DNA of 64,000 nt, from positions 9,155,859 through 9,219,858 of the forward strand of contig NC_134036.1 in the NCBI RefSeq assembly GCF_964204645.1, written 5' to 3'. Positions 1,300 through 64,000 of this stretch are shown piece by piece (the first letter of the stretch is position 1; each line of letters starts with the position of its first letter). The notes beneath the pieces are model-generated. The model did not search any database. It was not told where the DNA came from and worked only from the letters and a program-made list of their open reading frames with translations. Source of the DNA: Tubulanus polymorphus. Its lineage: Eukaryota > Animalia > Nemertea. The position numbers were made by a program, and so were the translations under genes.

Positions 1300-3830
1300 A
1301 ATTGAGTTTAAAAATACTGTATTGACCCCCAGTCACGAATGAAAACCGGTCAAAAAGACATTGAAAAAATTCAGCTCAAATTCTATAAAGACTTATATAG
1401 AAAAGAAGAAACGGATTTAGAAACCCAAAATATATTCCTGACTAATTTACCTCAAATCTCTAATCAAAAGAAACTTCAGCATGACTCCGAAATAGATATC
1501 GACGAATTAACAAATTCAGTAAAATCTTTTCAAAATAATAAATACCCCGGTATAGACGGACTACCTATTGAATTTTATAGAATATTTTGGCATACTCTCC
1601 GAAATGACTTTCTACAATTAATACATGCGTGTATACAAGAAAATAGACTTTCTAAATCAATGCAAACCGGTATTATATCATTAATTCATAAGAAAAATGA
1701 CAAAACAGACTTGAAAAATTGAAGACCAATCTCGATACTATGTACAGAACACAAAATATTCACAAAAGTTCTCGCTAACAGATTAATTAACTGCCTAACA
1801 AACAAAATACACCCAGATCAGGCATGTTGTGTTAAGGGACGTCGAATCCAAGACAATGGCCATATAATTAGAGACTTAATTGATTACGTTAATTATGATA
1901 ATTTAGAAGCATTTTTAGTAACCATCAATCAAATGAAAGCTTTCGATCGCTTTGACTGGCAATATATGTTCAAAACTTTAGAATCTTTCGGTTTTTGAGA
2001 AAATCTAATTCGATACATCAAAACTTGCTATTCAAATCCAAAATCTAGAATCAAAAGTAACGGCTTCTTAACTAAATCCTCACTTTAGAAAGAGGCGTAA
2101 GACAGGGGTGTCCCATGAGTGCAATACTCTACATAATAGCAGCGGAACCATTAGCAATCAAAATACGCGAAAATAACAATATCAAAGGAGTAAAATTACC
2201 AGACGACACAGAAATCGAAATCAAACAATACGCAGATGACACCACACTATGTCTAACCGACTTAGCAGGTGCAAAAATTAATGAAAATAAAACTGAATGT
2301 ATGTGGTTAGGATCTTAGAAAACTAGAAACGATAAACCTTTAGACTTAAATTGGAAGAAATCCATGAAGATTTATGGAATTCATTTCGGAAATGAGAATA
2401 GTGATGATTTAAACTGGTATCCGAAAATAAATAAAATTCAAAATGTCATAAATCTTTGGCGCCAAAATAAATTATCTTTACATGGCAAAAAGGTCGTCAT
2501 AAATTCTTTCATATTACCTATGTTATGGTACACTTCCGAAATTTTTCCAATCCCAGATAAATATATCAAAAACTTTTTGAACAAAAGTCATCATTTCCTA
2601 TGGGACAATGGAAAACGCCTTGTCGGTAAAGACATAATACACAAAACAATCGAACACGGAGGCCTCGACATACACAGCGTCAAAGACAGACAGCAAACAC
2701 AGGCAATTAAGACGATAATTAACCTTGCTTTTAAACCTAAACACTGGAAACCACTAATCAACTACAACCTGCAAAAATATCTAGGCCCAGGCTGGAATAT
2801 TTCAAGCATGATTCACAATGAAATACCAAAAGGAGTCATTACAAATGACTACTACAGACATCTATTAAAATCATGGACAGTTTTTCAACAACATCTAGTT
2901 CCAACTGAGACCATTACCGAAATTCTGCAAAAACCTATTTTTGGCAACCCAAAAATTAAACTCAACAAGAAAATCAGGTTTACAGAATACATACATCACG
3001 GTATAACCAATCTAAGACATCTATTCGATAATCATGGCAACTACAAAGCATTTAACGAAACACCATTAACAAATAGATTAAAACACACATGTATATACGA
3101 GCGATTCCGCAACATTGGAAACTAATTTTATCGGAACAAAATTTAGATCCTGGTGAATTACCAAAAATCTATGTGCAATTTGATAATATAGAATTTGATA
3201 ATATAGACTGTACTATAGGAAAACTTTCATCATCCCAAATTGATAGAATACTATTATTAAAAAATCTCCATCAAATCACACCGATTGGGCAAACCAAAAT
3301 TACTGAAATTCTAAATACTAATCTGAATTGGCCGGAAATTTGGAATGAAGTTTACAATAAACATATTGATAGACGGTATAGTGATATTCATTGGAAATTA
3401 CTACATAATACTCTTGCAACAGCTTCAAAATTAGTGTTTTGGAAAATTAAAACTGATCCAAATTGTAAAATTTGTGGACGCGCGGCTACAAATGACCATG
3501 TAGTATATTCATGCACAGAAGCACAGCAATTATATTCACGTATACAACCAATCTGTCAACGCATACTAAACGCACCTATAAATATCACTCAAGGCATCGT
3601 CTACACAGGAATTACTAAAACAATAGAAACAGATTTCTTCAAACACACACTCGCGAACTATCTTTTATTTCTCGCACAATCCATTTTGTACAAAAATCCT
3701 TACAATCTAGAACAAGGCTCTGGACGCATCAACACGATAATTTATCTCAAAAACTCACTAATAGATCGCCTAAACCAAGAAATCATGCTTCAACAAAACC
3801 TTCATATTTGGAGTCTTAACAATATACATA
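1300..3830 (+). mobile_element. Decayed L1/Tx1-clade non-LTR retrotransposon ORF2 (RT and C-terminal zinc-binding region), 5' truncated
   Basis: ORF fragments with KYPGIDGLPIEFY, [W]RPISIL, KAFD, RGVRQGCPMS, QYADDTT, EHGGLDI, CKICG...TNDHVVYSC; multiple stops and frameshifts. Confidence 0.92.
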
Positions 3831-4276
3831 TACATAGTGGAGCAAGTAAGCGGACTGAATGCAGTAAACAGAATCACAATCGATACGATTAGCGAAGTCT
3901 AACCCAATTAAACCCAACGCCATTTTCTTTTATTAAATACACCTACATACCCCGATTTTGACACTTGGGGTATTTTTTGATATAGATCGAACTGGAATGA
4001 CGGTCTATCAATACGCATAGAACTTTCTAACCACTTTTGCTTTATTTCACCACATACGCATTACATAAGTTTACTGTTACTGATGTTTTGATTGTGAACT
4101 CAGTCCCACAGCCGCGATAGCTGGAAAGCTGCCTCCGTTTTTTGGCTTCGGGATAGCAAGCTCAGTCTATCTCAGACTATCGCGCAATGGTGACTGGAAA
4201 GTTGCCTCTTGATATCGGTCTCATTAAAAGCTACCAAAAACCTAATCGTGACAATGTAAATAAACCCGATCAAGAC

Positions 4277-4628
4277 TGTAAAAATATCAATTATATTCAA
4301 TATCCACCAATAATCATCATTATCTTTCTTCACATTTTTCATATCAATTAAATCTCCTTGCCACTGTTGATCTACATAACTTACCATAGTTTTACGAGTT
4401 TTATATTTTCTAACAATTTTTTTATGTGTTGTGTATGTTGGTTGTTCTAACATAAATTCATTTATATCTTTATATTTAACTAAATTTTGTGGGATTATCT
4501 TATCTAATTTATCTTGTTTTACTTGACGCCATATATTTTTGGTAGAAGAATAAGCAACCGAACTTCCAGGGTTGTAATATAAGTTATAAATATTGTTCTT
4601 TAGTATTAGGAGTTTTTTTACCACCCAT
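4277..4628 (-). pseudogene. Retroviral-like (rve) integrase, N-terminal part only
   Basis: LYYNPGSSVAYSS...QPTYTTHKKIVRKY...VDQQWQGDLIDM...WWILNIIDIF, the Polinton integrase pattern with the first catalytic D; similarity stops at ~4277. Confidence 0.88.
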
Positions 4629-4658: not shown

Positions 4659-5907
4659 CTAATATTGAATACTATCTAATTGTGAATTTACAATATTTAA
4701 TTGTGCGTCAGATATAATATAAATGTGCATTTTGAAATTTTTGTCTTCTCTTTTCTTTGCCATGAAAAATTGTATTCCATCTTAAGTGTTCTGTAGTTTT
4801 TTCCCAGAACAATGTAATGAATTATCCTCTGTTATTCTAAAATCTAACCATAATGCATATCTATTACCGGTACAATAATCAATTTGATTAATATTACAAT
4901 TTTCAGATGATTTTACTTTTTCATTCATAAAATGTTTTCTAATTTCTGGCCATTGATCTATCATTCTCATTCCTTGACAAAATATTTTATTTGCTATTCC
5001 TTCGATAGTTATTTCTACTTTTGTTATTTCAGGATTATAATAATTATCTACCTTTATTGCACCATTAGAATATGTTACAATGGTAAAAAAATATTAATAT
5101 ACCTTTAATAGATCTTCTTGGGAAGTTAATATTCTCATTAATTATTTCATCATTTGCATTAATAGTTACAGTTTTAAATTTATCAATATAATCATATAAT
5201 AATGAAAATCCTTGATTGTATTGTGTTTGAATTGCGTTAGCAATATTTTCATTAGTTACTGTATTATATTCTAAACATATATTCGATAATTTATAACCCA
5301 TATCTTTAGCAACGCTAGATAATACAATTTCATTTACAGGAGCAAATGTTATCTCACATATGATATCTTCTTGAATTATATATTTATATGAAGGTGCATT
5401 ATTATTTATCAATTCAAAGTCTAATGGAATTTTATATTTGCTTCCATAAATCTTTTTAATCAAATTATCTACATCATTAGCTACTACTGCATTATTGGCT
5501 TCAGATCTTAATTTATTTTGGTTTTCTGATTGGATGCCTTGAAATATCATATTATTTCTATTTTCTTTAGTTAACCATAAATCTTTATAATGCATAAATA
5601 AATTATAATCATCTAATGAGAAAACTGTTTCTGGGCTAATCTTTATAGTTAATTCTTTAATCAAATATCTTCCGACATTATCAACAACATAATTATTATC
5701 ATTACCGGTTACTTTTATATCGGCTGATAAATAAATACTATTTGGAACATAAAAAGTATTTTGTGTTAATCTAGGAATTCTAACATATAAAGTTTCATCG
5801 GGATTAATATTTGAAGGATTATGAGTGATTATATGATGTGATCTTTCTGCTTTAATAGCATTAGATATTCTATGATTCTTAGAAGGATTGATATAACTCC
5901 CACTCAT
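4659..5907 (-). pseudogene. Putative double-jelly-roll major capsid protein (hexon-like), frameshifted
   Basis: ORFs 5065-5907 and 4782-4970 join into ~415 codons rich in beta strands (NPSNINPDETLYVRIP, LIKELTIKI, YYNPEITKVEITIEG, YALWLDFR, HIYIISDAQLNI); size and context fit a Polinton/PLV MCP. Confidence 0.7.
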
Positions 5908-11959: not shown

Positions 11960-12483
11960 ATAGAAAATAAAAATGGTGAAATAACTAGAAAAGATATTAT
12001 AAAAACAATTATTCCATCAACATTTAACACAAAACAAAAGAAAATGTATTTATATTTATTATTTAATGATTATTATGAAAAAACCTAAATTAACAGAAGA
12101 AGATATGGAAAATATAAAAAAAAACATTCAAACAAATATTAACGTATCATTTGGAAAATAGAATAACAGATTCAATTAATTATGAATTCTTTTTAAATAA
12201 GATTGTAAATTATTTAAACATCGATATTATAATTCCATTTGACGAATTAACAAACAAAAAGAAACAAAGAGAGCGAGATGAAATGTGGTACAAGATAGAA
12301 CTTTATTTAAATGAGAAAAATGGAATGGAAGAACCTAAACAAATTATACAAGAACAATTAAATGAAAATGAAGAAGCCAATATTGATTTCGAGTATGATG
12401 ATATTGATTTATATGGCCATAAGGTAATGATTTTATACCATCATCTAAAATATGCCTTTTATTGTCAAATGGATTCAAACTAG
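11960..12483 (+). pseudogene. Viral hypothetical ORF (or continuation of the zinc-finger gene), disrupted; 3' end overlaps PolB 3' end
   Basis: ORF 12151-12483 plus upstream AT-rich coding-like sequence. Confidence 0.4.
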
Positions 12484-15400
12484 TTTTTTCAACTTCATTA
12501 ATGTACATCTCGTGATTTTCGGATCTTAAACAATTCATTTTATGTTTCATTACAATTGAGTTATATAAACACTTTATATAATCTTGAAATTCTATATGTT
12601 TATCAACCACATGTTTTGTTATTCCTTTTAACTTTTTAGCTTCATGATCTTTTGTTCTGTAACTATACATTTTACTTCTTATCCCAACAAATTCAATCAT
12701 TTCATCACCCCCTAATTCATCTTTAAACTTACCAGGAATCGTTTTATTATCATTGCTAAATAGTTCATGATCTTTGGGATAATTGCTAAAATCAAAATGA
12801 TGTTTTAATGTTTTTAAGTCTTTTGTTATGTCATTTGTCTTGATTTTTAGCATGTAACTGTCAGTATTGAAGCAAATTAATGGAAATCCACAGTTAAATG
12901 TGCCATCTTCAGTTGATAAATCATAAACATAATCTGTTGGGTTATATATTTCAAATAAATCTTTAACTTCTTCAGTTAAATCTTTATCTGTGTGGCTTAA
13001 ATTAAAGCAATTTGGTTTAGATTTAATCAATCCAATATTCATATAGAAGCCTAATGAATTACATAATATATTTAACCCTGATGAAGTAACTTTTCCTTTC
13101 TGTGCAAAGGTTATCTTTTTATCCTTTGTAAATTTTTTAGCACCATCTGCTGCGTAGAATCCAATGAAGAACCATTTTCTTAGATTATTTTTTTGCATTT
13201 AATACATAATCTGGAACTATCTTTTCTTTAGTTGAAGTATTACTTTTCACTATTGCATGAATATAGAATTCATCATTATATTTTATAGCAAAATCTTTAG
13301 GATTATTTACAAGTATTCTATAAACTGCTGATGATTTTATAACATCCATGATTTTAAATGTTTTATTTGGATAAACTTCTTCACAATATTTCTTTATTCT
13401 TTCTAATAATATCAAATCTTGATTGCATAAATACCAACAATATTTATTACCACAAACATATTTATACACACCTGCTGAACCATCTCCCATAAAAATCCTT
13501 CGATAAAATATTCTTTTTCTTCTAATGTTTAAGGTTCTATATCATAAATATTATCAATAATTTCGTCGAATGACGTATGATTCATTCTTTGGAAAAATCT
13601 TTTATGTAATAATTCATCTCCAATTTTTATATCAGTTGGTTTTATTTCATTACCATTTCGTTTAATTAAACTATGATCTTCTGTAACATCTACAAACCCT
13701 AATTTAGTTCTAACCTTATAGATTTTGTTATTTGTTTTAGGCCTAATAGTATTCTTTAATTTTTTCCATCCATTTCTTGTCCAAAAATCCATTAAACCAT
13801 TTATTTGTATTAAGTCTTTTTCACCATATGAAATATAACATTCATTTTGTTTTGGAATTATTTCTGAAATTCTTCTTATCAATATTTTATCATTACATTT
13901 TAACAATATTGGGGTGTCAGCTGTTACAGAATCAAAATATAATATTTCAATATGCTTTTCCCCAAAAAGTGGTTGTAAAACATTATAATAAAAATCATAC
14001 ATTAATAATTTTGATACTCTTAAAACAGTTGAACCAATGAATATAGGTTTATTAAATTTCATTGACGTTCTTTTTAATTTAACTGCTAGTAAATAATCTT
14101 CAAATCTTTTATTTCCTAAATGTCTAGGACTTGATTGTAAATGTCTTAATCTTTCAGAATTATTTACTAATTCAATATCATTTCTATTTCTAATATTTTC
14201 ACATGTTTTACCATAAAAACTATTATTCATTAATTTGAAGAAATCTTTTTCAAAATCTGTTTTTGATATTGTTCTCTGTTGAGTATTGAAATCTATATAT
14301 TTTTCTAACCACTTCGATTGATTAAATTCAATATATCTATGTACTTTCTTTAATTTCATTCCTTGTTTTAAATAAAATTTTAACATTCTATAATGAACGA
14401 TATAATTGTATTTATTATTTTGAGTAAGTATTAATTTTTCTGTAAAAACACGATCTTTCGGTTTTATTTTCTTCTGGTATTCACTTAAACGACTATCATC
14501 TACAGTTAAATGTTCTGGGCAATAAGGTAAGTTTCTTGTTTTAAACTTTATAATTTCAGGATATTCTAAATCAACTACAAAGAAATAACCAATTGGTGCT
14601 TCATCTTTTAAACTCATAATTGCGCTTTCCCAATCAGTTTTATCATCATTTTCAACTTCTGTTAATATAAATTTTTTATATGGTTGAGGTTGCATCATTG
14701 CCCAACCATACAAATTATTGGCGTCAATATATAATAATTTATATTCATCATTTGCTTTAAAATACCTCCCATAACACCACTAATTCCACCTCTAATTGAT
14801 TTTTCAAATAATGAAACCATGTCTGGTTCTTTTAATAAATCTAATTCTACATTTATGTATTTTAAACCACATTGCCGGGTTAAACCAGCAATAACAAGGA
14901 TCAACATTAAAATGATTCAAATTAACTTCTCTAAAATTTTTCAAATATGTCAGCCAATATCATAACATCTGATTTTAAATATAAATCAACTAATTCACCA
15001 TGATTTTTCATCTTAAAATGGTTCCAAATATTTAATGTTCTATTAAACACTTCGTCTTTCACATACTCCTCTTTAAATTGATCATAAAATTGATCTTTTA
15101 ATAATTCTGTTACATTAAAATCATTGTGTGTTTTATAAAATGAATAAGGAATTGCACCTTTATATCTCAATAATTTAAAATCTTGTTCATTTGGATAATA
15201 ATATCGAGTTATAACAAAATCGTTATCAACTAAACTTTTTGATGAATTATCTAATGAACTTGCTAGAAATCTATAAGAATCTAAAAATCTAATGCAACCA
15301 AATTGAAATGAAACATAATTTTCAGATGTTTTAGCTAATAGTTTAAAATCATATTTTCTTACATTTACACCATTCATAGCATTATATTCTTCTATTTCTT

Positions 15401-17444
15401 GATTAATTGTACCCAATTTCCTTGATAATTGTTTTATAAATAGATGGGTATCATAGCCTGATAAATTATGAAATAATATTGGTACGAAATTAACTTTCTT
15501 AGCTTGTAAATTACAATCTTCATGAGCAGCTCCACGATATTTTGAATTTAAATGATCATGATCTCTAACTTTTTTATCAAATGAATAAAAACGATTTTCA
15601 CAATAACAACAATGAGTTGCATAATTAAAATCAATTTCATCTTCTTTTGTCATAACTATTCTTTTATTTTTGTTTAATAATTTTGCAAAATCACTTTCTA
15701 ATTCAATCATTTTGTTACAAAAATCATTAACTACATTTTCACCTCTAAAAGAAATATATTGACTTTCATATAATTCAGGATAATTTGATTTTATATAAAT
15801 TCCATAAGCAGCAGCTCTTTGATGAACCTTTTTAATTGTATTTATAATTGGTGGGTCTTGTGTTGTGTCTTCATTTAATTCATTTCCTTTATCCATTGAT
15901 TTTAATAATTTTTTTTTTGTTATATATTTCTTTTCTATCTTGATCAGTTAATTCTTTATTTAACGATTCAAAATCCCCATAAATTACAAATTGAACAGTT
16001 TTTTTTAAATTTATGATTAGTAAATTTCAATTTATAATCTTTTTCTGTTGGCATTATTAATTTACAAAAATCTTTATTATTCTTTATGTTTTAATAATGT
16101 ATTCTCAGTCATGAATTTAGATAAACATTTTCTACATAGATAAATTTTATTATGGTGATCACTTTCTGTTCTAAAGAATAAATCAATTTGTTTTAACCAC
16201 ATATAATGTTCATTTTCATCTTTTTTGTAATATAACAAATCTATAGCATTTTCATCATCATAATATTCTGTTAAATATAAAGCTTCCAATGTATAATCTT
16301 TGATATTTTCACCTTTTGTCTTTGGTAATTGCATTAATTCAAATACATTTATTTTTAAATTATTAACTTTTTCTATTTTAGGAATCATTTTTATAGTTAC
16401 TGGATATTGATCAATTTTATATAATGTTTCATATTTCGGTAATTTGTTATTCTACAAACATTTTCCTGTGTTGGATGTAAGCAACTAATAATTGACCATA
16501 GAAAACATTTATTGTCTTCATTTTGAATATTTATTACTGCTTTTGTTGTAAATGGTAATTTAATATAAGATGATGCTTTAATATCCTTTTCTGTTGTAAA
16601 GTTTGAATCATTTTTAAACATTTTATTACTTTTTGATGTTTTATTTCTTTTTGTATTGTAAACATTTAAATCTAAATATATAATTTCATTCAATGTTAAG
16701 CCAGAACCCTCAAAATATCTTTCTTCAATATGACGTTTAAATTCATTAAATATTTTTTCTAACTTCTCTTTTTTTGTGTTTTTGAAATTATTTCCTGTGT
16801 TTGAAAATTATAATTCATTTTTTCTTCTGACTTTATAAAACTTACTTTCCCAGAGATACTAATTTTTGGATATTCAACATCTGTTATCAAATCTAGTATT
16901 TTTTCTATTATTTCATTAAATGTACTATAATCTTCTATTGTTATACCTTTAAAAAATCTAAATATAATAGCTGCAGGACATTTAACTATGTAATGTTTCT
17001 AAAATTTCAATTGTATCTTTTATTTCTAGTGAATCAATATAATTTCTAACATTTTCCATGTAAGGTTTATTTGAAATGGATTTAGTTTTTGAAGTTGTTT
17101 TTTTTTACTTTTTGAGGTTTATCATCAAAATAATCTTTTCCTAAAACATTATTACTCAAATTTTGATGGTGTTTTTGTGATTCGAGATGTCTATTATAAT
17201 TCCTTTTTACTATAAATTCATTACAAACTTCACATTTTATTTCATCCACATTCATATTTTCTAATCTTTCTTTTCTTTCATTGGAATTTTCTGGAGTTTC
17301 AAAATCTATTACATTTTTTATATGATTTGCAGTTTTTTCGTGTCGTGTTTTATGAGATGTATCGACGTATTTTTGACAATATGTGCAATAATATTGATTT
17401 TTATCAACATTATTATTTTCTGGCTGGTGTTCATTCTCCCCCAT
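12344..17444 (-). pseudogene. polB: Protein-primed family B DNA polymerase (N-terminal zinc fingers, OTU-like, endonuclease VII-like, exonuclease, polymerase) containing an intein; many lesions
   Basis: VINIQNEDNKCFLW, KVRDHDHLNSKYRGAAHEDCNL, FHNLSGYDTH, FLDSYRF, IRGGIS, NNLYGWAM, KLMNNSFYGK, YFD/TDS, PGKFKDE, SKMYS, KGI. Confidence 0.95.
12866..13930 (-). other. LAGLIDADG homing-endonuclease intein inserted at YFD|TDS of pPolB
   Basis: Block A SVTADTPILLK, block B VTEDHSL, LAGLIDADG helices FIEGF(F)MGDGS and FFIGFYAADG, block F DYVYDLSTEDGTF, block G ICFN followed by +1 Thr. Absent from the paralog at 63730/63731. Confidence 0.93.
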
Positions 17445-18458
17445 TTATTAGGAAAAAAATTACTTGTGGTGATGAGTGGTGTGTCGCCCTCTCGCCCTCT
17501 GATCTGAAAGCCTACTTTTCCAATTACTTAGGCATAATCGATGCACGCGCATCACTATGTACTCGTATAGAGTCGATCATAAGTACATCGTTTTTCATTG
17601 GTTTCATAGGATCGGAAATCATTATATTTAATGAGCTGTCACTGATATTAGGTTTTCATATACTATTTTATCATTTTCGCTGATGTACTGCGCGTGTATA
17701 GAACACACACGGCTGTACAGCGAGGAAACTTGAAGCAACCTTGACCCTACTTAGTATGCGAACGCGCACCTGTAGCATATTCAGCCAGCGGAGTCATCGG
17801 CGTTTGTCGATGATTTCCGATTCATATTAAATAAGTTTGTAAGCTATATTTTATTAGTCTTGTGATGAATATTCAATTGTATTTTGCTAATATACGATAT
17901 TTAAACTTTCTTTTCATAAATAAATTGATATTACGGTATTTTATAAAATTAGATTTCGTGCGGAGTCATGTGACCGTACATCATGGCGGATTGTAAACAA
18001 AAAGTGATGACAGCTAGAGAAGATGAATATGTCTTTAAATTACACCCAAAAATGTGTTTTCCTACCAAATAACAATGATCAACTATTAGGATACGACGGT
18101 TACTATTGTTTTAAGATCATCATGCTTTCAAATGGAAGAATGAAACGACAGCTTGTCACCGGAAAGCGATTCAATCCAAATTCAATTAGTTTTATTGAAA
18201 ACTGCCGCTGATCAAATCACGTATAAAGGATAAAGCATGAGTTCACCCACGGTAAGTACTTTATTGCTATATGAATAAACAAAATATGAGGCCAGAATGT
18301 ATGCACCTTCGTTCGATTTGCTGCCGATAGCCTAGGCTACTAGCCTACCTATACATCACGTCCACAAACTCCATTCATTTGTAGTACACGTCTATTCAAA
18401 TGTATAGTTAATTATCCTCTATAAACCGCCATACTTTCTATACTGTCAAAATCCTTAA

Positions 18459-18685
18459 ATGTAGCGGCACACAAGCGTATTTTCGCCCGATCGCGGCGAA
18501 TTTATAAATCGCCCGAAAAATTCGCTCGTGTGGCCACTCACGGCGACGACGATTTCGTCGGCCGACTCGATCGCCCGGCGAATCGCCCGTATCAAACATG
18601 TTTAATATTTTCGGCCGATTATTTACACCGGCGATCGGGTGTATGAATTCGCCGGCGAATTCGCTAGCGCTCGTGTGTCCCTAGC
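18459..18685. mobile_element. GC-rich MITE nested in transposon 1 (possibly Harbinger-like)
   Basis: Imperfect terminal inverted repeats (tagcggcacacaagcg / cgctcgtgtgtccctag), TTAA on both sides, internal tcgcc/ggcga palindromes. Confidence 0.5.
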
Positions 18686-19097
18686 TTAATACTGATGCGG
18701 GCGGGCGGTAGGCCTATCAGAGGCTTGCTGGCTGTAGGCTACATCTCTCTCCCTTGCCCTCCCTATTTTGTTTTATCTCTCGTCATCACTTAAGACCGAA
18801 TCAGGCAGGGCTGTCAATGAGAATCAGTAATTAAGTATGAACTAAAACTGGTTATAAGTTTCAGCTTGTTTTTTCTTTTATTTTTCAGAAATTACATAAA
18901 TTTATGACGTGCAACAGTGATTTACATCATAGAACAAAAACTAATTAGAGAATCTGGAACTGATTGGGAAGCTAGCTTCGAAGGTACAGTTCCTCAAAAT
19001 TTTCGGCATTTTAAGTTTTTAAACATTATAACAAGTATGATGAATAAACTTATATCAATGCATATTCAGCTCATGAAGAAATATTTCTCATTATAGG

Positions 19098-22000
19098 TTA
19101 AACCTGATCACTGACATTGCTACATTTCTGGCAAGTTCGTGTATTACTCGATGGTGACATTTTCTTGAAGAATCCTCCACAGTTACACTTCCGGATTATT
19201 TTGTGTAAGTGCAGTGATTTTGTTGAGTAGAGACCTTGATTCAAAAACATTAATTTTGTGCGGACTACTCTGTTCCGCAAACAGGAATAGATTCTGGCAT
19301 CTTGGTTCATACTCGCATGCTTGCTTTCAAGCCCCTGCTCTCCAAAGAGCCCCAATGACTTCCATGTTTGGATGAATTCAGGCACGTGATAGATCAAAAC
19401 ATGCAATTTGGGAGTTATATTCGCCGTGGGGAAATTTTGAGGAAACCATGTACCAAATTCATGAATACTGTTCACTACATGTTCTATTTCAGGTTCGGAC
19501 AAAAACCGACAAGCTGAATATACTTGATAGATATCTTGAAACTTCTCGAAAAGATCCAAAAATAACTTTCGGTCATTCGGATAATTGTTGAGACAGGATA
19601 ATAGTATTTGTGGATTGTTAATTCCATTTTCCTCATCCTTTTTAAACAACTTGTGTACATGGTTTCCTACAAAGCTATTCGAGTGATATGCCTGTCTGTC
19701 GACTCCTATCTTTTTAAGATTTTCATTTAGATCTTTTTGTATTGGTCCCATCTCTAAGGTTATGTCCTTATATATTTGGTTAAGCTTGGTTCTTCTCGGA
19801 TTTAACAGTACTTTTATTGATGGAATTTCTATATCTTTGATTTTGCTCATGTTTTCTTCTGCTTGTTTCAGGAATTTATCCGGTGTTATTTTTTTGTCCG
19901 CAAGTGGCCGACATTTCAAACAAAGGAAATCGCTATCAGAAATATCAGGATCATATACAGATTGAACACATTGGCTGTGGTATGGTGCTTCGCAGTTCGT
20001 GCAATACAAATATATATGTGGCTGCGGATTCTCAATAGAACGAATTATACAAATCGGCGCCCCACAGTTTAATGGACTAGAGCGTTTTTTCTTTGCATTT
20101 TTCAATAAGTCGACTAGCTCTTGACAAGATTGTAACTTCTGTTTTAGGCTATCCAGTTCATCCTGCAAGCTAGTTACAGATGCTGAAGCTGCTCTCCATG
20201 CTTCCCATTGCTCGGGAAAACGTTCTCCGAGGGAAGATTCATCAAGTTCACAACAACGTTTTTCTAGCATCTCGAAGAACATTAACCCTAAGCCAAGAGA
20301 AACATGGAGACCAGGAGGAACTAGATGGCCTAAATCAGAGGGCTTGAAAAGCATACTACTTTGAATATTTTGTGTCTCCGCACCAATAACCCGTGGTGTA
20401 GCTTCAGCAGTTTGTGCATTCCTTAAATAGGACCCGATTGAACGCGATTGGTACTGCTTGAATGTTGGGGTATGAGGTGTTGCATCTTTTTTGCGCAAAT
20501 CATGGAGTGTTACCTCACACCATAGGCATGGATAAGATGATGCGCTGCCTTGATGGCCCATCATCTGGCAAAGGAAATGAAGGTCCCCCATTAGAAATAG
20601 TCTAACGGTAATTTCTTGATCAAAAACGATGATGGTTTTGACAGTTGAAATTTCACCCTGGAATTTTCCAAAAACCTTATTCAAATTCTCCAAACAGTCA
20701 ACCCCTTCATAAAAACTGATCAAATGCGTTTGATCTGGACTATTCGGGGATGGTCCGTTTATGATGGCTAGTACCATCTTTGTACTACCGCCCCCTTTAT
20801 CCACCCCGATCTTTGCCCATATTTCGTCATGAAATTCTGGGGACCTATTTAACTGATTTTTCATTATCAGTTTTTCTACTGACTTTTGTATTAATAGCTC
20901 TATTGATGTCACAGAAACAAACGCTGACAATTGCTTTTCATGCGTTCTGCTATTAATTTCCAGTTCTATTTCACCAGCTTCAATGAATGTAGAAAACGAC
21001 TCTTGTCTGGCTGCAAGCTCTTGTCTAATATTTCGACTAGACGGAAAAATCTGAATATTGTAATGTTTCAAGATTTTTTTAAGTTCAAGTAACTTATTCA
21101 TCGGTAGTCTCAAATTTAATTTCAATTCTATTACTTGAGTTGGATCTAATTGATTTACAGTTGCGATACCGGCCAACTCCAGAGCCTTTTTGACTAAATC
21201 AGGATACCTTTTCATGAAACAAGATAATGTTACAGCCATATCATTGCCTGACGATGAAATAGAGGATAATTTATCCAAAACAAGTTTCAATTTTCTTGCT
21301 CTCGAGTCAAGAGTTTTCTTTGAGGCTGAACTGGAATTAATTGTTGGATGTTCTAATTTGGTGTAACAACTGCTTTTACTGCGAAAACTAGTAACAAGGG
21401 GAGTAGCTTCAAATGTTTCTAAGTTTGATGAATCTGTGTCAATTTTTAATAAATCTTGTGAATAAATTTGCTCAAGTTTCGCTTTCAAATTTTGAATTTC
21501 TTCATTCTTCTGTCGAATTTGGTCGGATAATTCATCGATTTTCTCTTTCATGGTAATCAAATCAGGATGACAAGAACATTGACAATGAGACTTAACAGGT
21601 GATATTGAACATAAGGAAACCGAATTTAGATCACTACACTGGAGGAGGACATCAATATCAGACAAATCTACACCATCTACACCATCAACAGCAGATATCT
21701 CGAGTGGATTTTCCAGCAAAATATCGTCATTAGTCGAGCTTTCCTCTCTTTCCGTAAATTCACTACTCTGGCTTTCTTCAAATGTTGAATTTGCAACTAT
21801 GTCCCTAGTTTTTGTTCCTAGGGAAATGTTAAGAGGGAAGAATAAATATGATTGTAGAAAATGGGTCCTTTCAAAGACCTTCATTATTTGAATGAAATAT
21901 GTGTTGAATTGAGCAGAATCAGAAATATTTGTCTCATATTTTTTGCAGATGTTAGTAAAAAATAAACCTGTACCGAATAAACCTGTACCACCTTAAACAG

Positions 22001-35528: not shown

Positions 35529-38500
35529 ATGGCAGAAAATTTTGACAGGAAAGTTGGTCAAGGCAAACGTAAGCTTTATTATGGGTCCAACCAGAAAAGT
35601 AAGAAAAATAAAGCTAAAGTAAAAAAAATGATCGAAGCAAGTACGTATATCAATACAATTCTTTTTATGTCCCAGTAGTTTCATTCTTCACTCCCAAAAT
35701 GCCAACTATGAATCATGCCTATGCCTCGGCTGTGCCCATTGCATTTTGCTGGCAAGTTAGTTATTCATGAATAAGGTATACATTTTCGATTTTTGATTTG
35801 TAAGTATATTTGTTAAAAATATAATCTATAGCTGCATTCAAATGAGAGTGAAAAATAAACTTTGGAATTTGTTATTTAAATTAAGTGTTTATTTTCTGAT
35901 TGAATAAAAACAATAATTATATTTTCTGACTTATTTTCTGACTTTTTAAGTTCTGATTTATTTTTCAAAAAGGAACTGATTTCTAAACATGCTCTGAATC
36001 AAAGTATCTAGGGATCATGAAGATCTTAAATGGCAATTCTCAAATAAATGTGTTTCGTGTATAGTCTACTCCTGTTGTGCCTATTAACCCATTCCCCCCT
36101 AAGCCAATATCAGTATTGAAACATTAATAAGAGTCTCGTATGTATTCTTGGAAAACAGGCCTCAGGTTTACAATGTATACAATGCACATGTTCATATTTA
36201 AGAATTGTTCAGAAAAAGGAGGTGAAGTAATTATATTATGATGACTGCCAGTGAGTGAGACTGAGAATTTGAGGGTTTATGAGTGACAACAACCCACAAT
36301 AACAAAAGGGTAAAACTCTCACCACTATTCCATTGGCATTTATCTGGATTGTTGTTAACTACAAACTTAAGAACTCAAATGAACCCTAGCAAGTGTAAAG
36401 ACACAATGTTCTACGTATAATGTTATTGTGGGTCTTATATTTGAAATGGAAAGAAATTATGATAAAAATGGTTAGGTAAGTTGAATTATATTTACTAACT
36501 GGTGACTAATACTTCCTATTTATGAATATATGGATTAATGAGAAAACAACAAAACTAAATTAATTAGTACCATATGTACACTTCCATTGATCTTTTATTT
36601 CAACTGATAATGATCGACATTGGTTTATAAATGAAGGGACTCGTATGCATGAAAATTAATTCATTGAAATTGATTGTATTTTACCATCTATTGATTCAAT
36701 AGGAAATGCAAAATGGGGAAATACGAGCCTATTGAGTGAAAGTGTGTCTAGCCAGTTTTCTCCTCAATCGCAAACTTCATTTGACGAAAAAGAATCAAAT
36801 ATTCAGCCTCCATTTACCAGTACTCCATTTACGTCCCCTGTTATGTATGTACCAAGTACCAACGTTGAAACATCTGTACCGACCTATCATTTCAAAGAGG
36901 ATCGCAGCTGTCAAACGGAGAACACTGCAACTGAAAATAAACAAGAAATTAAGATCAAACTACTTGAGTCGAAAATGAGACAGATAGAAAGTGAGAAATT
37001 GGTTTTGCAATCAGAAAATGTAAATTTAGCAGAGCAAATCAAAATTAAAGATCAGAAATTAGAAGAGTTACAAAATCAGATATTGCAATACGAACAATAT
37101 GAATCTCTAATCAGAAATAAAAGCTTATTAGAAATATGCGGAGGAAATATGAATAGCATCTTCGATGCTCGTCACTTAACGAAGTCTCGCCCTGAAAAGT
37201 TTTGCAAATTGAGCATCCCTAATGTCCCATCATCAGCGGCAAGTTCCCAAACTCTAGAAGCTCGAGCATTGACAATGAAAAATGTATTAGACACAATATC
37301 AGCTAAACCAATCAATTCATATCAGAGCAGCATCACGCTTTCAACATTTCTATCACACAATCCCAAATTATCTAAATCTGCAATAGACCATTCTCAACAA
37401 TTACATCTACTCAAACCATTAACCGCATCGCAATCTGTTGAATTAAAACTTGCTCTGCGTCTGCCGATGAGACGACTTTTCGACTTGAAACGGGTTCTAA
37501 AAAGCTATGGAACGCCAATCTTTCCATCTGCAAACAAAATCCGACAAGAGATCTTGCAGAGGGGAAAATCTTTCACCCCCTATATCACTGTAGGCCAAAC
37601 AGAATTAGAAGTTAATTCGAGAACCCATGAAAAAAAGACAGCTCCTCATGCAACTCTGACCAATTTGAAGTTACAAATTCAAAGAACTGTACAAAATCTA
37701 TCTGACCGAAAGAAAATGAGTTTTCATCCAAATTTTCACAATGAAGTTTGGGTCAAAGTGGGTATTGACAAGGGAGGGGGTAGTACAAAAATTATATACT
37801 CGGTTATAAATGGGGAAGGGAACAACAGTGCAGATGCCAGCGAAATGATTGGCTATTTTGAAGGCACTGATATTGTTGAGAATATGAGAACGGTATTCGG
37901 GATTTTCAAAGATGAAATCGATGCTAATGATATCACTATATCAACAATGATTGATAATAGAAAATTAGATTTGCCTGTTAGGATGTTCCTCATTGGGGAT
38001 TATGCATATCTGTGTAACTGCATGGGTCACCAGGGGCCCTCGGCTACCTATCCCTGTTTATGGTGCCAAGTAAAACTTGAAGATCTTAGGAAAAAGAACA
38101 GAACACCACACAATCCATCTTCCCATCCATATCAAAACCGTACTATCGCATCATATCTCGAAAATTCATCAAAATCACCACAATCATTCGGCCCAGAAAC
38201 CTTGAGTATTTCATCATCAATGCTATTCAAACCATCAGACATGCTTCATCTCGTTCCTCCAGTTCTCCATATTTCCCTAGGATTAGGCCACCGTTTCTTT
38301 GAGATGATGGAAAACAAGTGCAAAGAACACGACCAGACAAACTTAAGGGAATCGAACCCTGAATTAAACAAAAAAATGGCAAGACCAATCAGAAGTAGTT
38401 TCAAAATTAAGACTAGAAATCGAATCGAAACAATTGTCTTTTGAATCATCCAGCCAATTACTTAATCTCATGAAAATTTCCCACCGTAAAGGTTCATCGG

Positions 38501-39408
38501 TAATTGACTGCACGGCATCCATCTGCTTCATTCGCTCTATTGAAAATGCAAACCCAAATGAATATACATACTGCGTAGATTGCAACTTACCTTTTCATAA
38601 ACAATGCGTATCGAATATAGAATGTTTTACTGGTCGCAAACCATCAGCAGATTCTATCATAAAAAAACAAAACATCATCATCACAAAGCTAAAAAAAGAC
38701 ATCTCAACTTTGAAAACACAAATAGCCCCGGAACAATCTCTTCTGAATGAAATTTTCAAAGAAATTAATAGTATTCAAGGACCGACCCAAAAAAAACTCA
38801 ACAATATCCTATCTGAGATTGGTATTGATCGACAGGCCTACCATTCGAATAGTTTTGTCGGCAATCATATCCATAAAATGTTCAAAATCGATGAATCAAA
38901 AGGAATCAATAATCCGCGTAAATTATGTGAAGCACTAGAATTTGACCCAGCTACTCAGTCATTATTCCAACTTTTGTTTGAGAAATTTCACTCAATCTAT
39001 ACATTATATACGGCAAACCGTTTCCTTGAAAATTCTGAAGTTGAAGAACTAGGTAGGCTTTGTGATGATTTCGGTATGTGGTATCCGAACGCGTTTCCGG
39101 ACACAAACATCACTCCGAAAATGCACATGCTAATTTATCATGTACCAGAATTTGTTCGTGTCTGGAGGACAATTGGCATGTTTGGCGAACAAGGACTGGA
39201 ATCTAAACATGCTAGTGTCAATAAAGATGGACGAGTTTATTGCACTATAAGGGACAATATTCTACGAACCAAGTTAATCTTCATTAATCAGGGTCTATAT
39301 ACTACGAAAACGCTAAGTATCGAAACTGTTCCACGCAAATGTCTGTGCGGTGGATTTTTTATAACTAAACAAAATGAACGAAAATGTCAAAAATGTAGTA
39401 AGAGCTAA
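35529..39408 (+). CDS. Chapaev/RAG1-like transposase; predicted exons 35529-35640 and 36703-39408; one +1 frameshift in an A run at ~38370
   Basis: Same motifs as the 19098 protein (GIDKGGGSTK, GHQG..YPCLWC, RQAYHSNSFVGNH, TPKMH, GEQGLESKH). Removing one A restores NKKWQDQSEVVSKL. Confidence 0.82.
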
Positions 39409-51573: not shown

Positions 51574-52213
51574 TTCACTCGAACGATATAAGATATAATC
51601 CGACAATACAAAAAAAGAGTCCAAAAATCTTCCCATGAGCTAATATTTTATTCAGCGTTTTGACTTCATCCTAATCGTCAAGGAATTCTAAAGTCAAAAA
51701 CAAAAATACGAAATACATACTTTACACAACGTACATTTGTACAGGGAGTGGTGTGGTATGACAAGAATGTCGCCCAGCTAACATATTCATATCATAATAC
51801 GAAGCTCGTTTGTCAATATCACTTTTAGCCTCAATACTTCTATCAACGAGGTTCCATTGTAGAAAGTGTGGTGATCATGTCTAATGTATGGTGCTTGTAT
51901 TTCACTTTTCAATTCGAATTATCTCGGGGTAGCACTGAACACATGTGAAGTGCGGATGATCAGTGTTTTAAAGTGTGCAGATAATATGTCTAATGTAGTT
52001 CTTATTCAATTAAAAAAGTCTCAGGTGAAGCACTGAACACAAGTAAAGTGTGGATGATCAGTTTTGAAAGTGAGCTGATAAAATATTTAACGTCTGCTTT
52101 TTGTAGTTCATTCAAAAGTCACTAAAACCCGAACTATAGACTGGAAGACGAACAGTTTTTCAAGGTTTGTTGATAAAATGTCTCTCGGATATGTTTTACC
52201 TATTCTTTTCTAG

Positions 52214-52369
52214 CCACAACTTGTTACGGTAGTAGTTGTAACAACAGCAAGTGGGCGAAACACTGTAAACCCGGTCTGGCACCAGTAACACAGACACCTG
52301 GGGTTGAACTAAAATGTCCAGACGACAGCGAGTGTGATGCCGGATGGAACGGACCCGGATGTCAAATCG
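52214..52369 (+). CDS. Host gene exon 2: Cys-rich/EGF-like (TTCYGSSC...ECDAGWNGPGCQI)
   Basis: ag/gt boundaries, 156 nt, phase 1-1, C-x-x-G-W-x-G-x-x-C motif. Confidence 0.85.
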
Positions 52370-52804
52370 GTAAGTTAAGATCGAAACGATATAAATTACG
52401 TTTGCTGCCGGTTGCGAGTCCGAAGCCTCGAACCATTCCGATTCGGACATCAACACTCACACACCTGACGCGGTTCTCTCTAGCAGGAGTTCGAAACGCC
52501 GAGTCATTTTAATTCGTCGATTAAATGAATTCTTAGTTTTGAAAACATTTTCAAATCGCAGGGATTTTTCATCATCATATCGCCTATAGTCTCCATGTTT
52601 GAATGTACTGTCGTTAAAATCCCTGGTTTGGTTCTGGTTCGGGGAAAGAGTCCGGAAAGTTTCATTCGACGTTTTGACTATATCCCAATTAGTCATCCTA
52701 CGTGAGAAGATTACGGTATTTCCGCGTAAGTTTAATACGCGAGATATCGCCGAATAATTTCAGCAAAAGATAAAGAATGCAACGCAAACGTCTTTGGTCT
52801 CTAC

Positions 52805-52911
52805 TATAGCCGCGATCACGAGGAGATGATTTGGCCTGGACCAAATTGGCACGGATCAGGCTCGAGCCAAATTTGGCCGGTGCTAAAAACGCTCGTGTGA
52901 TCGCAGCTATA
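52805..52911. mobile_element. Small MITE-like inverted repeat
   Basis: tatagccgcgatcac ... gtgatcgcagctata. Confidence 0.55.
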
Positions 52912-53260
52912 TGCAAAATAGTATAAATGGAAAATTTGAGGTTGCGACATCCCTTTTAACTGACAAAAACTGATCAATGTTATGTAATACTCAAACCTGG
53001 TGACATATGAAACGTATAATGAGCAAACTTTCATTATACTGCTAAGTTATATAGGACTGATAGTTTTTTAACTATATGTGTTGTCGAAAAGCATAACAGT
53101 GGCTGAAAATAATTGAATTTGTGTAGTCACAGTGTAAAAAACATGATCGGATAATGCCATCGAAAGGATTTCGTCGAAACAGAGAAATCGCTGTATATAT
53201 GTTTTCTAATGCCATGTACGACACACGTATCTGAAATGTTGTTCTGTTGTTGTCTTCTAG

Positions 53261-53503
53261 GTAATGTAGCTCGCGACAAACAGGCAACGTCGTCTTCTGT
53301 TCTCACTTATAGTCTTTATGGACCTGACAAATGCGTCGATGGGTTGATTAGCGGCGGGAGAGAAAAGGGACTTTGCCACACTAAGAATGAAACTGACGCC
53401 TGGTTTCAAGTTGATCTTGACGCGCAACACGTCGTGCTGGGTGTCGACCTGTATGATCGATCAGACGCTACTAACTGTGATAACAATCCAGATAATTCGT
53501 GGA
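53261..53503 (+). CDS. Host gene exon 3: F-type (fucolectin) lectin domain, first half
   Basis: NVARDKQATSSS...CVDG...CHTKNETDAWFQVDL...YDRSD; 243 nt, phase 1-1. Confidence 0.9.
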
Positions 53504-53969
53504 GTAAGCTTTTTTTCTATTATCGTATTCGTTTTAGGATTTTGCGCATGAGAACATTCGACGTGATCTGGGTATTCCATTTTTGAGTTGAAATTTGAGT
53601 CGAAAGCTAATCTTACCTTTAACCTAACAACCCAGATCTATGGGTAAGGATCATGTGACAGCATTGAAAAGTAATTCCTCCTATCATTAAATAAAAGTAC
53701 TGAAAATATATTTTTTCTTCTCGGCATCGATGTGGGCCAATTTGTGGCCATTTCGATGGCTTTTTCCAAACGTAACTTTACAGTGTGAACTCGCTTAAGT
53801 TGTCTATAGTTAGGCAATTTGCGACCTAAAATTGTATATATATGCACTCCATTGATGAATTGGTGTAGGGTTTATACCTACTTCGAAGAATTGGTGATTT
53901 TTATACCTATGAAGGGAATTTTACCCGGGGGATTTTTACCTACATTCGTTTACATTAATGATATTTCAG

Positions 53970-56800: not shown

Positions 56801-56922
56801 GTATCCTTAGATATGCCCTCCGTTAATAGATTTGAACTTGGAACTTGAATTGTCACTGTGAAGTATGAATAACTTTTTTAGCAACTGACGTTTCGTCCTC
56901 ATGTGATATTGTTATTTTGTAG

Positions 56923-60142: not shown

Positions 60143-60224
60143 TAAATGTTATTCATATATATATGAATAACATTTAAATCATTGAACTTCTAAAATCAAT
60201 TTTAATAAAAAATATAGTATTAAA

Positions 60225-63200
60225 ATGGAAGCAAATAAATACTACTGTCCAACATACAATATCGATATAGACAAGTCTCAAAAAGCAAGACACAATAAAA
60301 CTATAACACATTTAGAGAATAAATTGAAACTAGAATATAAAGATGATATATTAGAAACTAAATTAGAAGAATTAAAGAATGAAAAAGAAACATATAAATG
60401 TGATACATGTAATCAATCATTCAGTGATAAAAGATATTATAAAGAACATTTAAAATCTATAAGTCATATTAGAAATAAGAATAATGATATTTTAGGTGAA
60501 GATTATTTTGATAATGATAACGATAAGAAACAGAAGACAATTAAAAGAATACAAAATAAATTAAACAATAAAAGACCATATATGGAAGATGTAAGAAATT
60601 ATATTAATTCATTAGATAATAAAAAAGATATAGAGATAACCGAAGCATTTAAAAGTGATATTGGTCCAGCAGCTATTGAGTTTAAATTTCATAAAAGTAA
60701 AACATTAGAAGAAAATAAAAAACATTTAGAAAATATGAAAGAAATAATAAAAATAATTACAGATGTTGAATATCCTAAAATTAGTATATCAGTTAAAGTA
60801 AAGTTTATAAAATCTGAAGATAAACCAATATATAATATAAATTCTCATTCACAACATATTATATCTAAACAACATATAGATGATAAATTAGATAAATGTT
60901 ATAATGAAGTAAAAACTAAAATAGAAGAGAAATATTTTGAAGGATCTGGTTTAATATTTGATGAAATAATATTTATAACTTTACATGTTTATAACACAAA
61001 ATATAATAAGTTAACTAAATCAAAACCAATTGATGAAAATAATTTATCATATTATAAAGAACCTGATATTGAAGCATCAAGTTATATTAAACTACCATTT
61101 AAAACTAATGCTGTAATAAATATACAAAATGAAGATGATAAATGTTTTCTATGGGCTATAATAAGTTGCTTACATCCAGTTGAAGATTAAAATAAACATA
61201 CTTATAGATTAACTCATTATAAACCATTTGAAAATAATTATAAGATAGATAAGTATCCTGTTAGAATTAAAAATATTCCAAAAATAGAAAGAGATAATCA
61301 TTTAAAGATAAATGTATTTGATTTAATCAAATTACCAAATACAAAAGGAAATAATATTAAACATTATACATTAGAACCTTTATACCTATCAAAAGATTAT
61401 GATTCAAACGATGTTATAGATATATTATATTATGAGAATCATTACATGTGGATTAAACAAATAGATTTATTTTTCAAATCAGAAAATGATCACCATAATA
61501 AAATATATCTATGTAGAAAATGTTTACATAAATTTAGTAATGAAAGTACATTATTAAATCATAAACAACTATGTGATAATCATGATTATTGTAAATTAGT
61601 TTTACCAAATGAAAAAGATAAAATATTAGAATTCAAAAAATATGATTACAAAAATAAAGTACCATTTGTAATATATGGAGATTTTGAATCATTAAATAAA
61701 GAATTAACAGATAAAGATAGAAAAGATATATATTATAAAAGAAAGAAATTAAATTCTAATGAAAGTGATTATTCAGAAGAACCACCAAAAACAAATACTA
61801 TTAAAAAGATTCATCAATCAGCTGCTGCTTTCGGGTTATATATAAAATCTGATTATCCAGAACTAATTGAAAGTGAATATTATCATTATAGAAATGAAAA
61901 TGTTATCAATCATTTTTGTGACTTATTAATTGAATATGAAATAAGATTTAATGAAAAGTTGAATACAAATAAAGAAATAATTATGACAGAAGAAGATAAA
62001 GAAGAATTTGAGTTTGCAGATAAATGTTATTATTGTGAAAAGATATTTAATTATAAAGATAAAAAAGTAAGAGACCATGATCATTTGAATGGAAAGTTTA
62101 GAGGCGCTGCACATGAGAATTGCAATTTACAAGCCAAAAAAGTAAATTTTGTCCCCATTATATTTCACAATTTATCGGGGTATGACGCGCATTTATTCAT
62201 TAAGCAACTGTGTCATAAAATAGAAGAAATCAATAATGAAATAGAAAGATTAAATTCAAATAGATTAAAAGATGACAAAGTATCAACTTATAAATTTAAA
62301 ATACTAGCTAAAACATCCGAGAATTATATATCTTTCCAATTTGGGTGTTTAAGATTTATAGATTCATATAGATTTTTAAATAGTTCATTAGATAACTTAT
62401 CTAAATCATTAGTTGATGATGAATTAAAGATATTAAAAGAATATTACCCAAATAATGATGATTTTAAATTAATGAGATATAAAGGAGCGATTCCATATTC
62501 TTTCTATAAAAATCATAATGATTTTAAAATAACTGAATTATTGAAAGAACAATTCTATGATGAATTAAAAAATGAATATGTTAAAGATGAAGTTTATAAT
62601 AGAACATTGAATATTTGGAATCATTTCAAAATAGAAAATCATGGTCAATTAGTAGATTTATATTTAAAATCAGATGTATTATTATTAACCGATATATTCG
62701 AAAGGTTTAGAGATGTAAACTTAAAATATTTCAATATTGATCCTTGTCATTGTTATTCATCACCAGGATTAACATGGGATTGTGGATTAAAATTTACAGA
62801 TATAAAAATGGATTTGTTAACAAATATAGATCAATTACTATTATTTGAAAAATCTATAAGAGGAGGTGTTTCAGGTGTATTGGGTGATAGATATTTCAAT
62901 GTAAATGATAATCCTGGATATAAATTATTATACATAGATGCAAATAATCTTTATGGTTGGGCAATGATGGAACCACAACCTTATGGGATGTTTGAAATAA
63001 CTGAAGTTTTACAAATTGATAAATTTGATTGGAAGAAAAGAATCCTAGATATTGCAGATGATTCAGATATTGGTTACTTCTTTGTTGTAGATTTAGAATA
63101 TCCTGAAAATATTAAATTCAAATCTAGAAATCTAGCATATTGTCCCGAACATAAAACTGTTAAACATGAAGAATTATCAAATTATCAAAAAAGAATTAAA

Positions 63201-64000
63201 CCTGAAAATCATATTCATACTGAAAAGTTAATGGTAACTCAAGAAGATAAATATAATTACGTTGTGCATTATAGAATGTTGAAGTTTTATTTGAATCAAG
63301 GAATAATATTAAAAAAGTACATAGATATATTTCATTCAATCAATCGAAGTGGTTAGAAAAATATATAGATTTTAACACCAAACAGAGAACTGAAGCAAAA
63401 ACTGATTTTGAAAAAGATTTTTTTAAGTTAATGAACAATGCGTTCTATGGTAAGACTTGTGAAAATATTAGAAATCGAAATGATATTGAGTTAGTTAGTA
63501 ATGGTAAAAGGATAAGGCATTTACAATCATATCCTAAGTTTTTAGGTAACAGAATATTTGATGAAAATTTAGCAGCAGTTAAAATGAGAAGAACAAGTAT
63601 GAAATTCAATAAACCAATCTATGTTGGTGCATCAGTTTTAGAATTATCAAAATTACTAATGTATGAATTCTATTATAATATATTACAACCACTTTTTGGA
63701 GAAAAACACATAGAAATATTATATTTTGATACAGATTCTTACATATTAAAGATAAAAACTGATAACATAACAGATGATTTAAAAATATTAAAACACCATT
63801 TTGATTTTAGTAACTATCCTAAAGATCATGAATTGTTTAGCAATGATAATAAAAAAGTTCCTGGGAAGTTTAAGGATGAATTAGGTGGTGAAGAAATGAT
63901 AGAGTTCATTGGTATTAGATCTAAAATGTATTCATATAAAACTAAAGAACATGAAGCTAAAAAGTTAAAAGGAATAACGAAAAATGTAGTAGAAAAGAAT
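60225..64000 (+). pseudogene. polB: Polinton/adintovirus-like copy B: protein-primed PolB, intein-free; one in-frame stop (61188) and one frameshift (~63315); runs off window
   Basis: Collinear homolog of 12344-17444 (VINIQNEDDKCFLW, KVRDHDHLNGKFRGAAH, YIDANNLYGWAM, KLMNNAFYGK, ILYFDTDSY). Confidence 0.95.

Follow-up and report, generated by a model that had tools for sequence, protein, structure and literature searches.

A LAGLIDADG intein in the catalytic motif of a decayed Polinton polymerase in the Tubulanus polymorphus assembly

We analysed a stretch of 64,000 nucleotides from the nemertean Tubulanus polymorphus (contig NC_134036.1 of assembly GCF_964204645.1, forward-strand positions 9,155,859 to 9,219,858; hereafter the window), which includes the remains of a Polinton, an integrating virus-like element. 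On the minus strand, the ILYFD|TDSY motif of its Polinton-type protein-primed family B DNA polymerase (pPolB) is split by a 1065-bp insertion at 12866..13930, and this insert is near certain, on the evidence of its sequence, to be an intein of class 1 type with a LAGLIDADG endonuclease domain. The fuller account, in which a LAGLIDADG intein occupies motif C of a decayed Polinton pPolB and intact copies splice and home, appears to us quite probable. In addition to this copy, which was the subject of the original prediction, we describe a whole clade of Polinton inteins that contains intact members and pairs of filled and empty alleles. To judge from the literature considered below, a pPolB intein clade of this kind, in which some members are intact and which shows signs of homing, is previously unreported.

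Anatomy of the insert at the Pol-c site

The minus-strand polymerase frame runs through ...FGEKHIEILYFD (HIEILYFD) into SVTADTP, the first base of which is 13930, and the insert closes with ...TFNCGFPLICFN (GFPLICFN), its last base being 12866, before the polymerase resumes with TDSYML. Between these junctions lies a Hint splicing domain with an inserted two-motif endonuclease. The N-terminal splicing region (13673..13930) extends from block A (Ser1, SVTADTP) to block B (TEDH, 13684-13673), the endonuclease core (13142..13510) from helix 1 (about 13510-13479) to helix 2 (13174-13142), and the C-terminal splicing region (12928-12866) comprises block F (VYDL) and block G (Phe and the terminal Asn). 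The window also contains an internal control: a second, related Polinton-type pPolB on the plus strand (60186..64000, one stop and one frameshift, extending past the window end) has an empty ILYFD|TDSY with its joint at 63730/63731. The two polymerases are 73% identical over 3.5 kb up to 13931 and 83% identical from 12857 down, with the insert precisely absent. Junction reading and empty site together confirm the insertion as first proposed.

Class 1 inteins have Ser or Cys at position 1, Asn at the C-terminus and Ser, Thr or Cys at +1 (PMC4031507, the source also of the block nomenclature; papers are cited by PubMed Central number). The window intein retains Ser1, Thr B:7, His B:10, Asp F:4, the terminal Asn, Thr+1 and the catalytic Asp of both LAGLIDADG helices. 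Two histidines that are common in class 1 without being obligatory, G:6 and F:13, are replaced by Phe (the penultimate residue) and Gly, respectively. The claim that every canonical block is present therefore held for Ser1, TEDH, the LAGLIDADG helices, VYDL, Asn and Thr, and failed for these two histidines. An FN ending occurs in 2/146 extracted inteins, the window intein counted, and inteins without His G:6 are mentioned in PMC4031507. Among relatives, P0052 has both histidines, and neither is present in P0061 or in L001, a locus on a giant virus metagenome-assembled genome (GVMAG), although the frames of these two are open. Without its two assisting histidines, the window copy may have come to splice more slowly or not at all. 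Its reading frame is broken as predicted, by one stop (13531-13529, just upstream of helix 1) and two changes of frame (near 13493 and near 13191), all within or just before the endonuclease part.

The N-terminal 133 aa score 27.4 bits (E 5e-6) with TIGR01445 (intein_Nterm), for which the curated cut-off is 24.5 bits, and the insert is therefore not a chance resemblance. Pfam matches to the window pieces alone stayed below cut-off (Intein_splicing, E 0.009; LAGLIDADG_3, PF14528, E 0.027), a Pfam scan of three open reading frames (ORFs) spanning the intein plus exteins gave no match, and a PDB sequence search with the C-terminal piece gave none. The proposed profile check thus succeeded with TIGR01445 and fell short with Pfam on these pieces. 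A Hedgehog or stand-alone Hint domain was ruled out by the Asn/Thr junctions, the endonuclease and the empty allele, and a spliceosomal or group I intron by coding blocks that reach both junctions.

The insertion point, YFD|TDS, is homologous to the YGD|TDS of Pol-c inteins in the family B polymerases (PolB) of Nucleocytoviricota and archaea (Mimivirus, PI-PkoII, Neq Pol). The predicted equivalence agrees with PMC549080, which gives YGD|TDS as the Pol-c site of Mimivirus and archaea. Ser1, TxxH, the terminal Asn, the +1 Thr, the two-motif LAGLIDADG endonuclease and the SVTxDTP start are common to both groups, and the SVTxDTP start is, as had been suspected, shared with giant-virus PolB inteins. 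Whereas those Pol-c inteins reside in RNA-primed PolB of family PF00136, the host here is the protein-primed PF03175 polymerase of an integrating Polinton. Polinton inteins differ further in forming a clade of their own with many nuclear-genome copies, and the window intein in its penultimate Phe.

Endonuclease domains have been described within Polinton polymerases as HNH/VSR inserts in pPolB (PMC10748475), and one sentence of PMC11071308 suggests that the HNH-type inserts result from intein invasions. No Hint domain is reported for these inserts, which stay in the mature protein, whereas the window insert has all splicing nucleophiles and interrupts the catalytic motif, so that its removal would be required. 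In an intact copy, Ser1 would form an ester, Thr+1 would take over the N-extein and Asn would cyclise, so that the rejoined D-T-D-S motif restores the polymerase. An intein would be tolerated at this essential site because splicing of the intact precursor restores the catalytic DTDS. Once freed, the endonuclease would cut YxD|TDS in an empty allele, and the intein would be copied in, along with some flank, when the break is repaired from the filled one. These splicing and homing steps are derived from the anatomy of the insert and from established class 1 chemistry.

Relatives, descent and signs of homing

Intact relatives of the window copy were found. The best homologue is P0001, a PF03175 polymerase of 1693 aa, whose insert at the same site is open over 354 aa and 61% identical to the window intein across 356 columns (breaks read as X). 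The fold was modelled on P0001 and not on the window copy; the model (18-row alignment, pLDDT, the predicted local distance difference test, 88; pTM, the predicted template modelling score, 0.89) predicts a Hint domain with an I-DmoI-like LAGLIDADG endonuclease. Its five best PDB matches (TliVMA, PI-PkoII, PhoVMA, PI-PfuI and PI-SceI; E 2e-16 to 3e-9) are all endonuclease-bearing inteins, and the alignment profile finds PI-PkoII, TliVMA, NEQ068 (the Nanoarchaeum Pol-c split intein) and I-DmoI. PF14528 scores above cut-off in 5/5 full-length pPolB relatives.

Five of the best 120 of 1302 relatives of the P0001 intein lie in pPolB (P0001, P0052, P0061, P0065 and P0066, of which P0065 and P0066 are classed as pPolB by about 38% full-length similarity to P0052), one lies in topoisomerase II and the remainder in PF00136 PolB. 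A DNA pattern search yielded a further intein-bearing pPolB, L012, with two stops in the endonuclease part. The degenerate block-G pattern is not specific to pPolB, given that 4/4 viral and 10/11 metagenome loci were RNA-primed PolB and L012 alone was pPolB; another search, with P0001 in viral contigs, gave 57 pattern matches, none confirmed. A search of 50% representatives (best 150 of 1512) added further fragments, such as P0200 at 68% identity. P0200 and the short fragments P0292, P0279, P0240, P0202, P0217 and P0220 resemble further pPolB inteins and stand outside the intein tree; that of P0292 follows a different extein type (...HYTD|SVTADMP), and that of P0202 begins with Cys. When the search was made with an empty allele, only P0001 was filled among the best 120 of 5839 relatives, the other 119 having no block B, and the intein is therefore rare among Polintons.

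On an extein tree of 8 filled and 69 empty rows, 7/8 filled rows fall in one 35-row starred subclade, and the filled state requires seven changes, five of them forced by starred branches. Long co-descent is indicated, with the intein gained or lost among closely related elements. Free jumping among all Polintons was ruled out, since none of the 35 rows of an FTD|TDS-rich clade is filled and the trees are mostly congruent.

The clearest signs of mobility lie in the P0052 cluster (136 members, 15 of them listed, on contigs up to 1 Mb). Thirteen alleles span the site, seven filled with open inteins of 346-348 aa and six empty. Within -10..+45 aa of the site, filled alleles diverge from empty ones at 25.2% of positions, against 1.7% in the remainder; between filled alleles the corresponding values are 1.6% and 0.7%. 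The comparison is weakened by an interval picked after viewing the alignment, by rows that are not independent and by its coverage of 13 of 136 members. Filled alleles read YMD|TDS at the site, and empty ones YTD|CDS, YFD|TDA or YGD|TDA. Such a pattern would be predicted by homing, through flank that comes from the donor, and by escape, through variant targets. Homing between Polinton copies is likely, on a homing-like signature that belongs to the P0052 cluster and not to the lineage of the window copy.

Several observations weigh against an intein that still splices and homes. The window copy has neither assisting histidine, and the filled state on the extein tree is no more clustered than shuffled labels (124/500 shuffles were as low). 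Around the empty site of its nearest empty relative, P0327, the window extein differs at 4/30 positions upstream and 5/30 downstream, much like the remainder. P0061 apart, filled alleles resemble one another about as closely in the intein as in the extein (58/61, 49/50, 48/51 and 80/77% identity), and the two trees, which had been called for as a check, agree, so that descent has been mostly vertical; repeated loss could account for part of the scattered distribution. The congruent trees, the similar identities and the lack of site-centred divergence in the window lineage would suit an ancient passenger, which entered the ancestor of a pPolB subclade once, ceased homing and was thereafter only passed on by descent, with repeated losses through precise deletion or through recombination with empty relatives. 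The stops in the endonuclease part of the window copy and of L012, and the Asn that replaces Ser1 in P0003, fit the same history. Four findings speak for continued homing and make the passenger quite unlikely: the catalytic Asp of both helices is kept in 7/7 full-length pPolB inteins, the seven filled P0052-cluster alleles have open inteins, divergence in that cluster is centred on the site, and P0061 indicates a jump across polymerase classes, as described below.

If homing is taken as the better reading, empty targets would be supplied by the many Polinton copies in one nucleus or by free virus genomes during co-infection, and would be wanting in single-copy animal genes. The endonuclease might instead be kept as a weapon that cuts the empty Pol-c sites of competitors, whether Polintons or a co-infecting large DNA virus, and so gives filled elements an advantage beyond simple homing. 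pPolB and the PolB of large viruses do have the target motif in common, the catalytic motif itself varies among empty alleles, as escape from cutting predicts, and Polinton-like viruses associated with entomopoxviruses have been reported (PMC11296320). Ordinary homing, however, predicts the site variation equally well, and no co-infecting virus is known for this host; we regard such a role as very unlikely.

Kinship of the intein and its possible donors

The intein tree was built under LG+G4 from 51 full-length inteins; 245 extracted inteins were reduced to 153 of full size, 86 after dereplication and then 70, from which rows near the pPolB clade were taken together with seven loci. The seven full-length pPolB inteins form one clade (100/100), which lies among Pol-c PolB inteins, several of them from GVMAG contigs, when the tree is rooted on topoisomerase inteins. 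Within the clade, the P0061 intein is nested beside the window intein (96/86). The P0061 extein, the motif of which we take to be VSR-type, aligns with other pPolB exteins only in short stretches; a deviant extein combined with a nested intein indicates a jump between pPolB classes. The SVTxDTP family also occurs at two sites in type II topoisomerases, D[QAS]D|TDG and EGD|SAA, where it forms a clade of its own (P0002, P0005, P0008, P0011, P0014, P0024, P0221 and P0248).

Among viral contigs, 540/592 candidate stretches encode relatives of the intein. The 80 loci kept are 32-42% identical, the best E-values fall on GVMAG contigs and every readable N-junction is of the xYGD type of PolB; the GVMAG PolB inteins are about 35-42% identical to the Polinton intein. 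A search of 185,579 prokaryote genomes yielded nine loci, namely two contigs in Bacteroidales metagenome-assembled genomes (MAGs), five archaeal loci (22-30% identity) and two short segments (32 aa at 53% and about 85 aa at 33%). The two Bacteroidales contigs (L096 and L097) encode an intein-bearing giant-virus-like PolB with the same flanks as viral loci L030 and L036, and are probably viral contigs mis-binned into bacterial genomes. An archaeal donor was ruled out, the long matches reaching only 22-30%.

A PolB of the large-DNA-virus type is the likely donor, by a single entry, and this is the best reading of the sequences and not a demonstration. Of the large-virus origin first suggested, nearest kinship alone stood, in that the YGD|TDS PolB inteins on GVMAG contigs come closest (up to 42%), co-infection being at most a possible route of transfer. 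The intein would have passed once from the RNA-primed PolB of large DNA viruses, in which inteins commonly occupy this site, into one pPolB subclade. It would have persisted there by descent and by homing among close relatives, and would have jumped at least once into another class of pPolB (P0061). Three points count against this derivation. The tree fixes no sister group of the pPolB clade (83/63), the nesting of that clade hinges on the topoisomerase inteins chosen as root, and the same intein family occurs in P0009, which we read as a phage-like PolB. A phage-type or other PolB might then have been the donor, or the transfer might have run from Polintons to large DNA viruses; the open sister group, the presence of the family in topoisomerase II and in P0009, and one weak phage match would all agree with this. 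Against it, most near relatives are PF00136 PolB, several on GVMAG contigs, and PolB inteins are far more diverse than the small clade that those of pPolB form among them. In addition, the 185,579 prokaryote genomes gave only nine loci, of which the two best are the giant-virus-like PolB contigs of the Bacteroidales MAGs. We therefore consider a donor other than a giant virus unlikely.

The carrier element, its chromosome and the place of the intein

The intein-bearing element is, to judge from its genes, a decayed, multi-copy Polinton. An A+T-rich stretch of about 13 kb, from about 4.2 to 17.5 kb, contains the genes recognised, each on the minus strand. The N-extein (13931..17402) combines the Polinton-type pPolB, which matches PF03175 above cut-off and so upholds the predicted host, with zinc fingers and an endonuclease-VII-like insert (PF02945, weak). 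It is recovered by tblastn with query P0324 as eight pieces with seven changes of frame and three stops. The C-extein (12416..12865) begins at the +1 Thr of TDS. With eight pieces and three stops upstream of the intein, this polymerase copy is dead, and the window copy is unable to produce either polymerase or intein; in all, the gene has about ten breaks besides the three within the intein. A frameshifted gene for a double-jelly-roll major capsid protein (4782..5907) has moderate support overall: its PF16903 match (E 0.006) falls below cut-off, and its Atlas features reach 0.96-0.97 with capsid-type clusters at a low recognition value. A probable N-terminal fragment of an rve-type integrase, recognised by eye in the translation, lies at 4260..4582 and is truncated at the left edge of the element. 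The right terminus (17504..17528, AGTAAT...GGCTTTCAG) starts with AG at 17528. There, 778 reads of run X5, which belongs to another study and bears this species label, have loose ends that agree at only 0.35, as expected if copies occupy many insertion sites.

The pPolB, the double-jelly-roll capsid, the probable integrase fragment, the AG-starting terminus, the length of about 13 kb and the multiple copies are all shared with Polintons/Mavericks (adintoviruses, PMC8502044). Unlike those elements, the window copy has no detectable left terminal repeat, ATPase or protease, and these gaps tell against its assignment. No ATPase or protease was found among ORFs of at least 45 aa or in a Pfam scan of 17 ORFs (16 inside the element, small fragments falling outside the scan), the integrase fragment had no Pfam match, and no left terminal repeat was found, whereas the right terminus is present. 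The left end appears truncated, and no target-site duplication is therefore readable. A decayed non-LTR (long terminal repeat) retrotransposon with an RVT_1 match adjoins the left side of the element (1312-3892), and the integrase end may owe its truncation to this or some other repeat. The sister element lies 43 kb from the intein-bearing one. To its left, a 266-bp piece (59875-60140) has at its ends a perfect 25-bp inverted repeat similar to the first element's terminus, and is possibly a non-autonomous mini-element or a collapsed Polinton end.

An animal chromosome is very likely the carrier, given the content of the flanks (a non-LTR reverse transcriptase, a piggyBac-type transposase fragment, FN3, F-type lectin), their GT..AG joints, and the animal relatives of the polymerase, the named extein relatives being aphid, beetle, spider and hagfish proteins. 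The window also contains a multi-exon host gene (52177-58399) with EGF-like, FN3 and F-type lectin pieces, the lectin matching fish FBP32 (E 8e-9). Among the listed reads and contigs none spans the whole stretch, which would be expected were the element a non-animal contaminant or the product of an assembly mis-join. The X5 raw reads, however, cover 30/30 bins, the intein included, contigs of run X2 match the flanks at 17708-18509 and 18597-19500 with 0 differences, and the element is decayed like an old insertion, with its sister 43 kb away, so that contamination is scarcely credible. Summed X5 depth was 182 and 278 in the two intein bins and 330 and 375 in the adjoining extein bins; this depth, which is not a copy number, implies that many related copies contain the intein.

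Contigs of run X1 skip three GT..AG stretches (17838-17953, 18250-18888 and 18981-19095), and X1 therefore behaves like an RNA library; they cover the intein bins too, which is a hint only. Among the 15 of 196 joints listed, none skips the intein. A 964-aa DUF1280/PHD ORF on the minus strand (19098-21992) adjoins the skipped stretches, and a second, frameshift-split pair of DUF1280-containing ORFs (36660-39408) probably belongs to a transposon-like family.

Inteins are stated to be absent in metazoans (PMC8529194), and the eukaryotic virus inteins listed in PMC5784728 come only from Iridoviridae, Marseilleviridae, Phycodnaviridae, Mimiviridae and unclassified viruses, the word 'polinton' being absent from its main text. 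Iridovirus inteins, such as that of Chilo iridescent virus (PMC549080, PMC5784728), are likewise inteins in an animal DNA virus; their carriers are large nucleocytoviruses, whereas the carrier here is endogenous. The word 'intein' has 0 occurrences in the main text of PMC8502044, PMC10748475, PMC11131425 and PMC11296320, and inteins appear only in general terms in PMC12220804, PMC3671162 and PMC5718144. As the original prediction had supposed, a Hint-type intein within a Polinton polymerase was found nowhere described in the full-text literature searched, a scope that leaves supplements, most subscription papers and InBase outside.

These results qualify the rule of intein-free animal genomes, in that inteins would enter animal chromosomes inside integrating viruses and not in a host gene, and they would add protein-primed polymerases to the known intein hosts. 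The suggestion in PMC11071308 that inteins invaded Polinton polymerases gains substance accordingly. More tentatively, and with somewhat less than even confidence, we propose that a homing intein seeded by giant viruses is active in animal nuclear genomes and that empty Polinton copies answer it by changes to their own catalytic motif. If true, this would be an intragenomic arms race among intein, virus and resistant siblings that bridges the divide between RNA-primed and protein-primed polymerases. The near-identical filled and empty alleles with variant targets provide a natural test set for two questions, namely the route by which an intein reaches distant alleles and the persistence of homing in the absence of sex between single-copy alleles.

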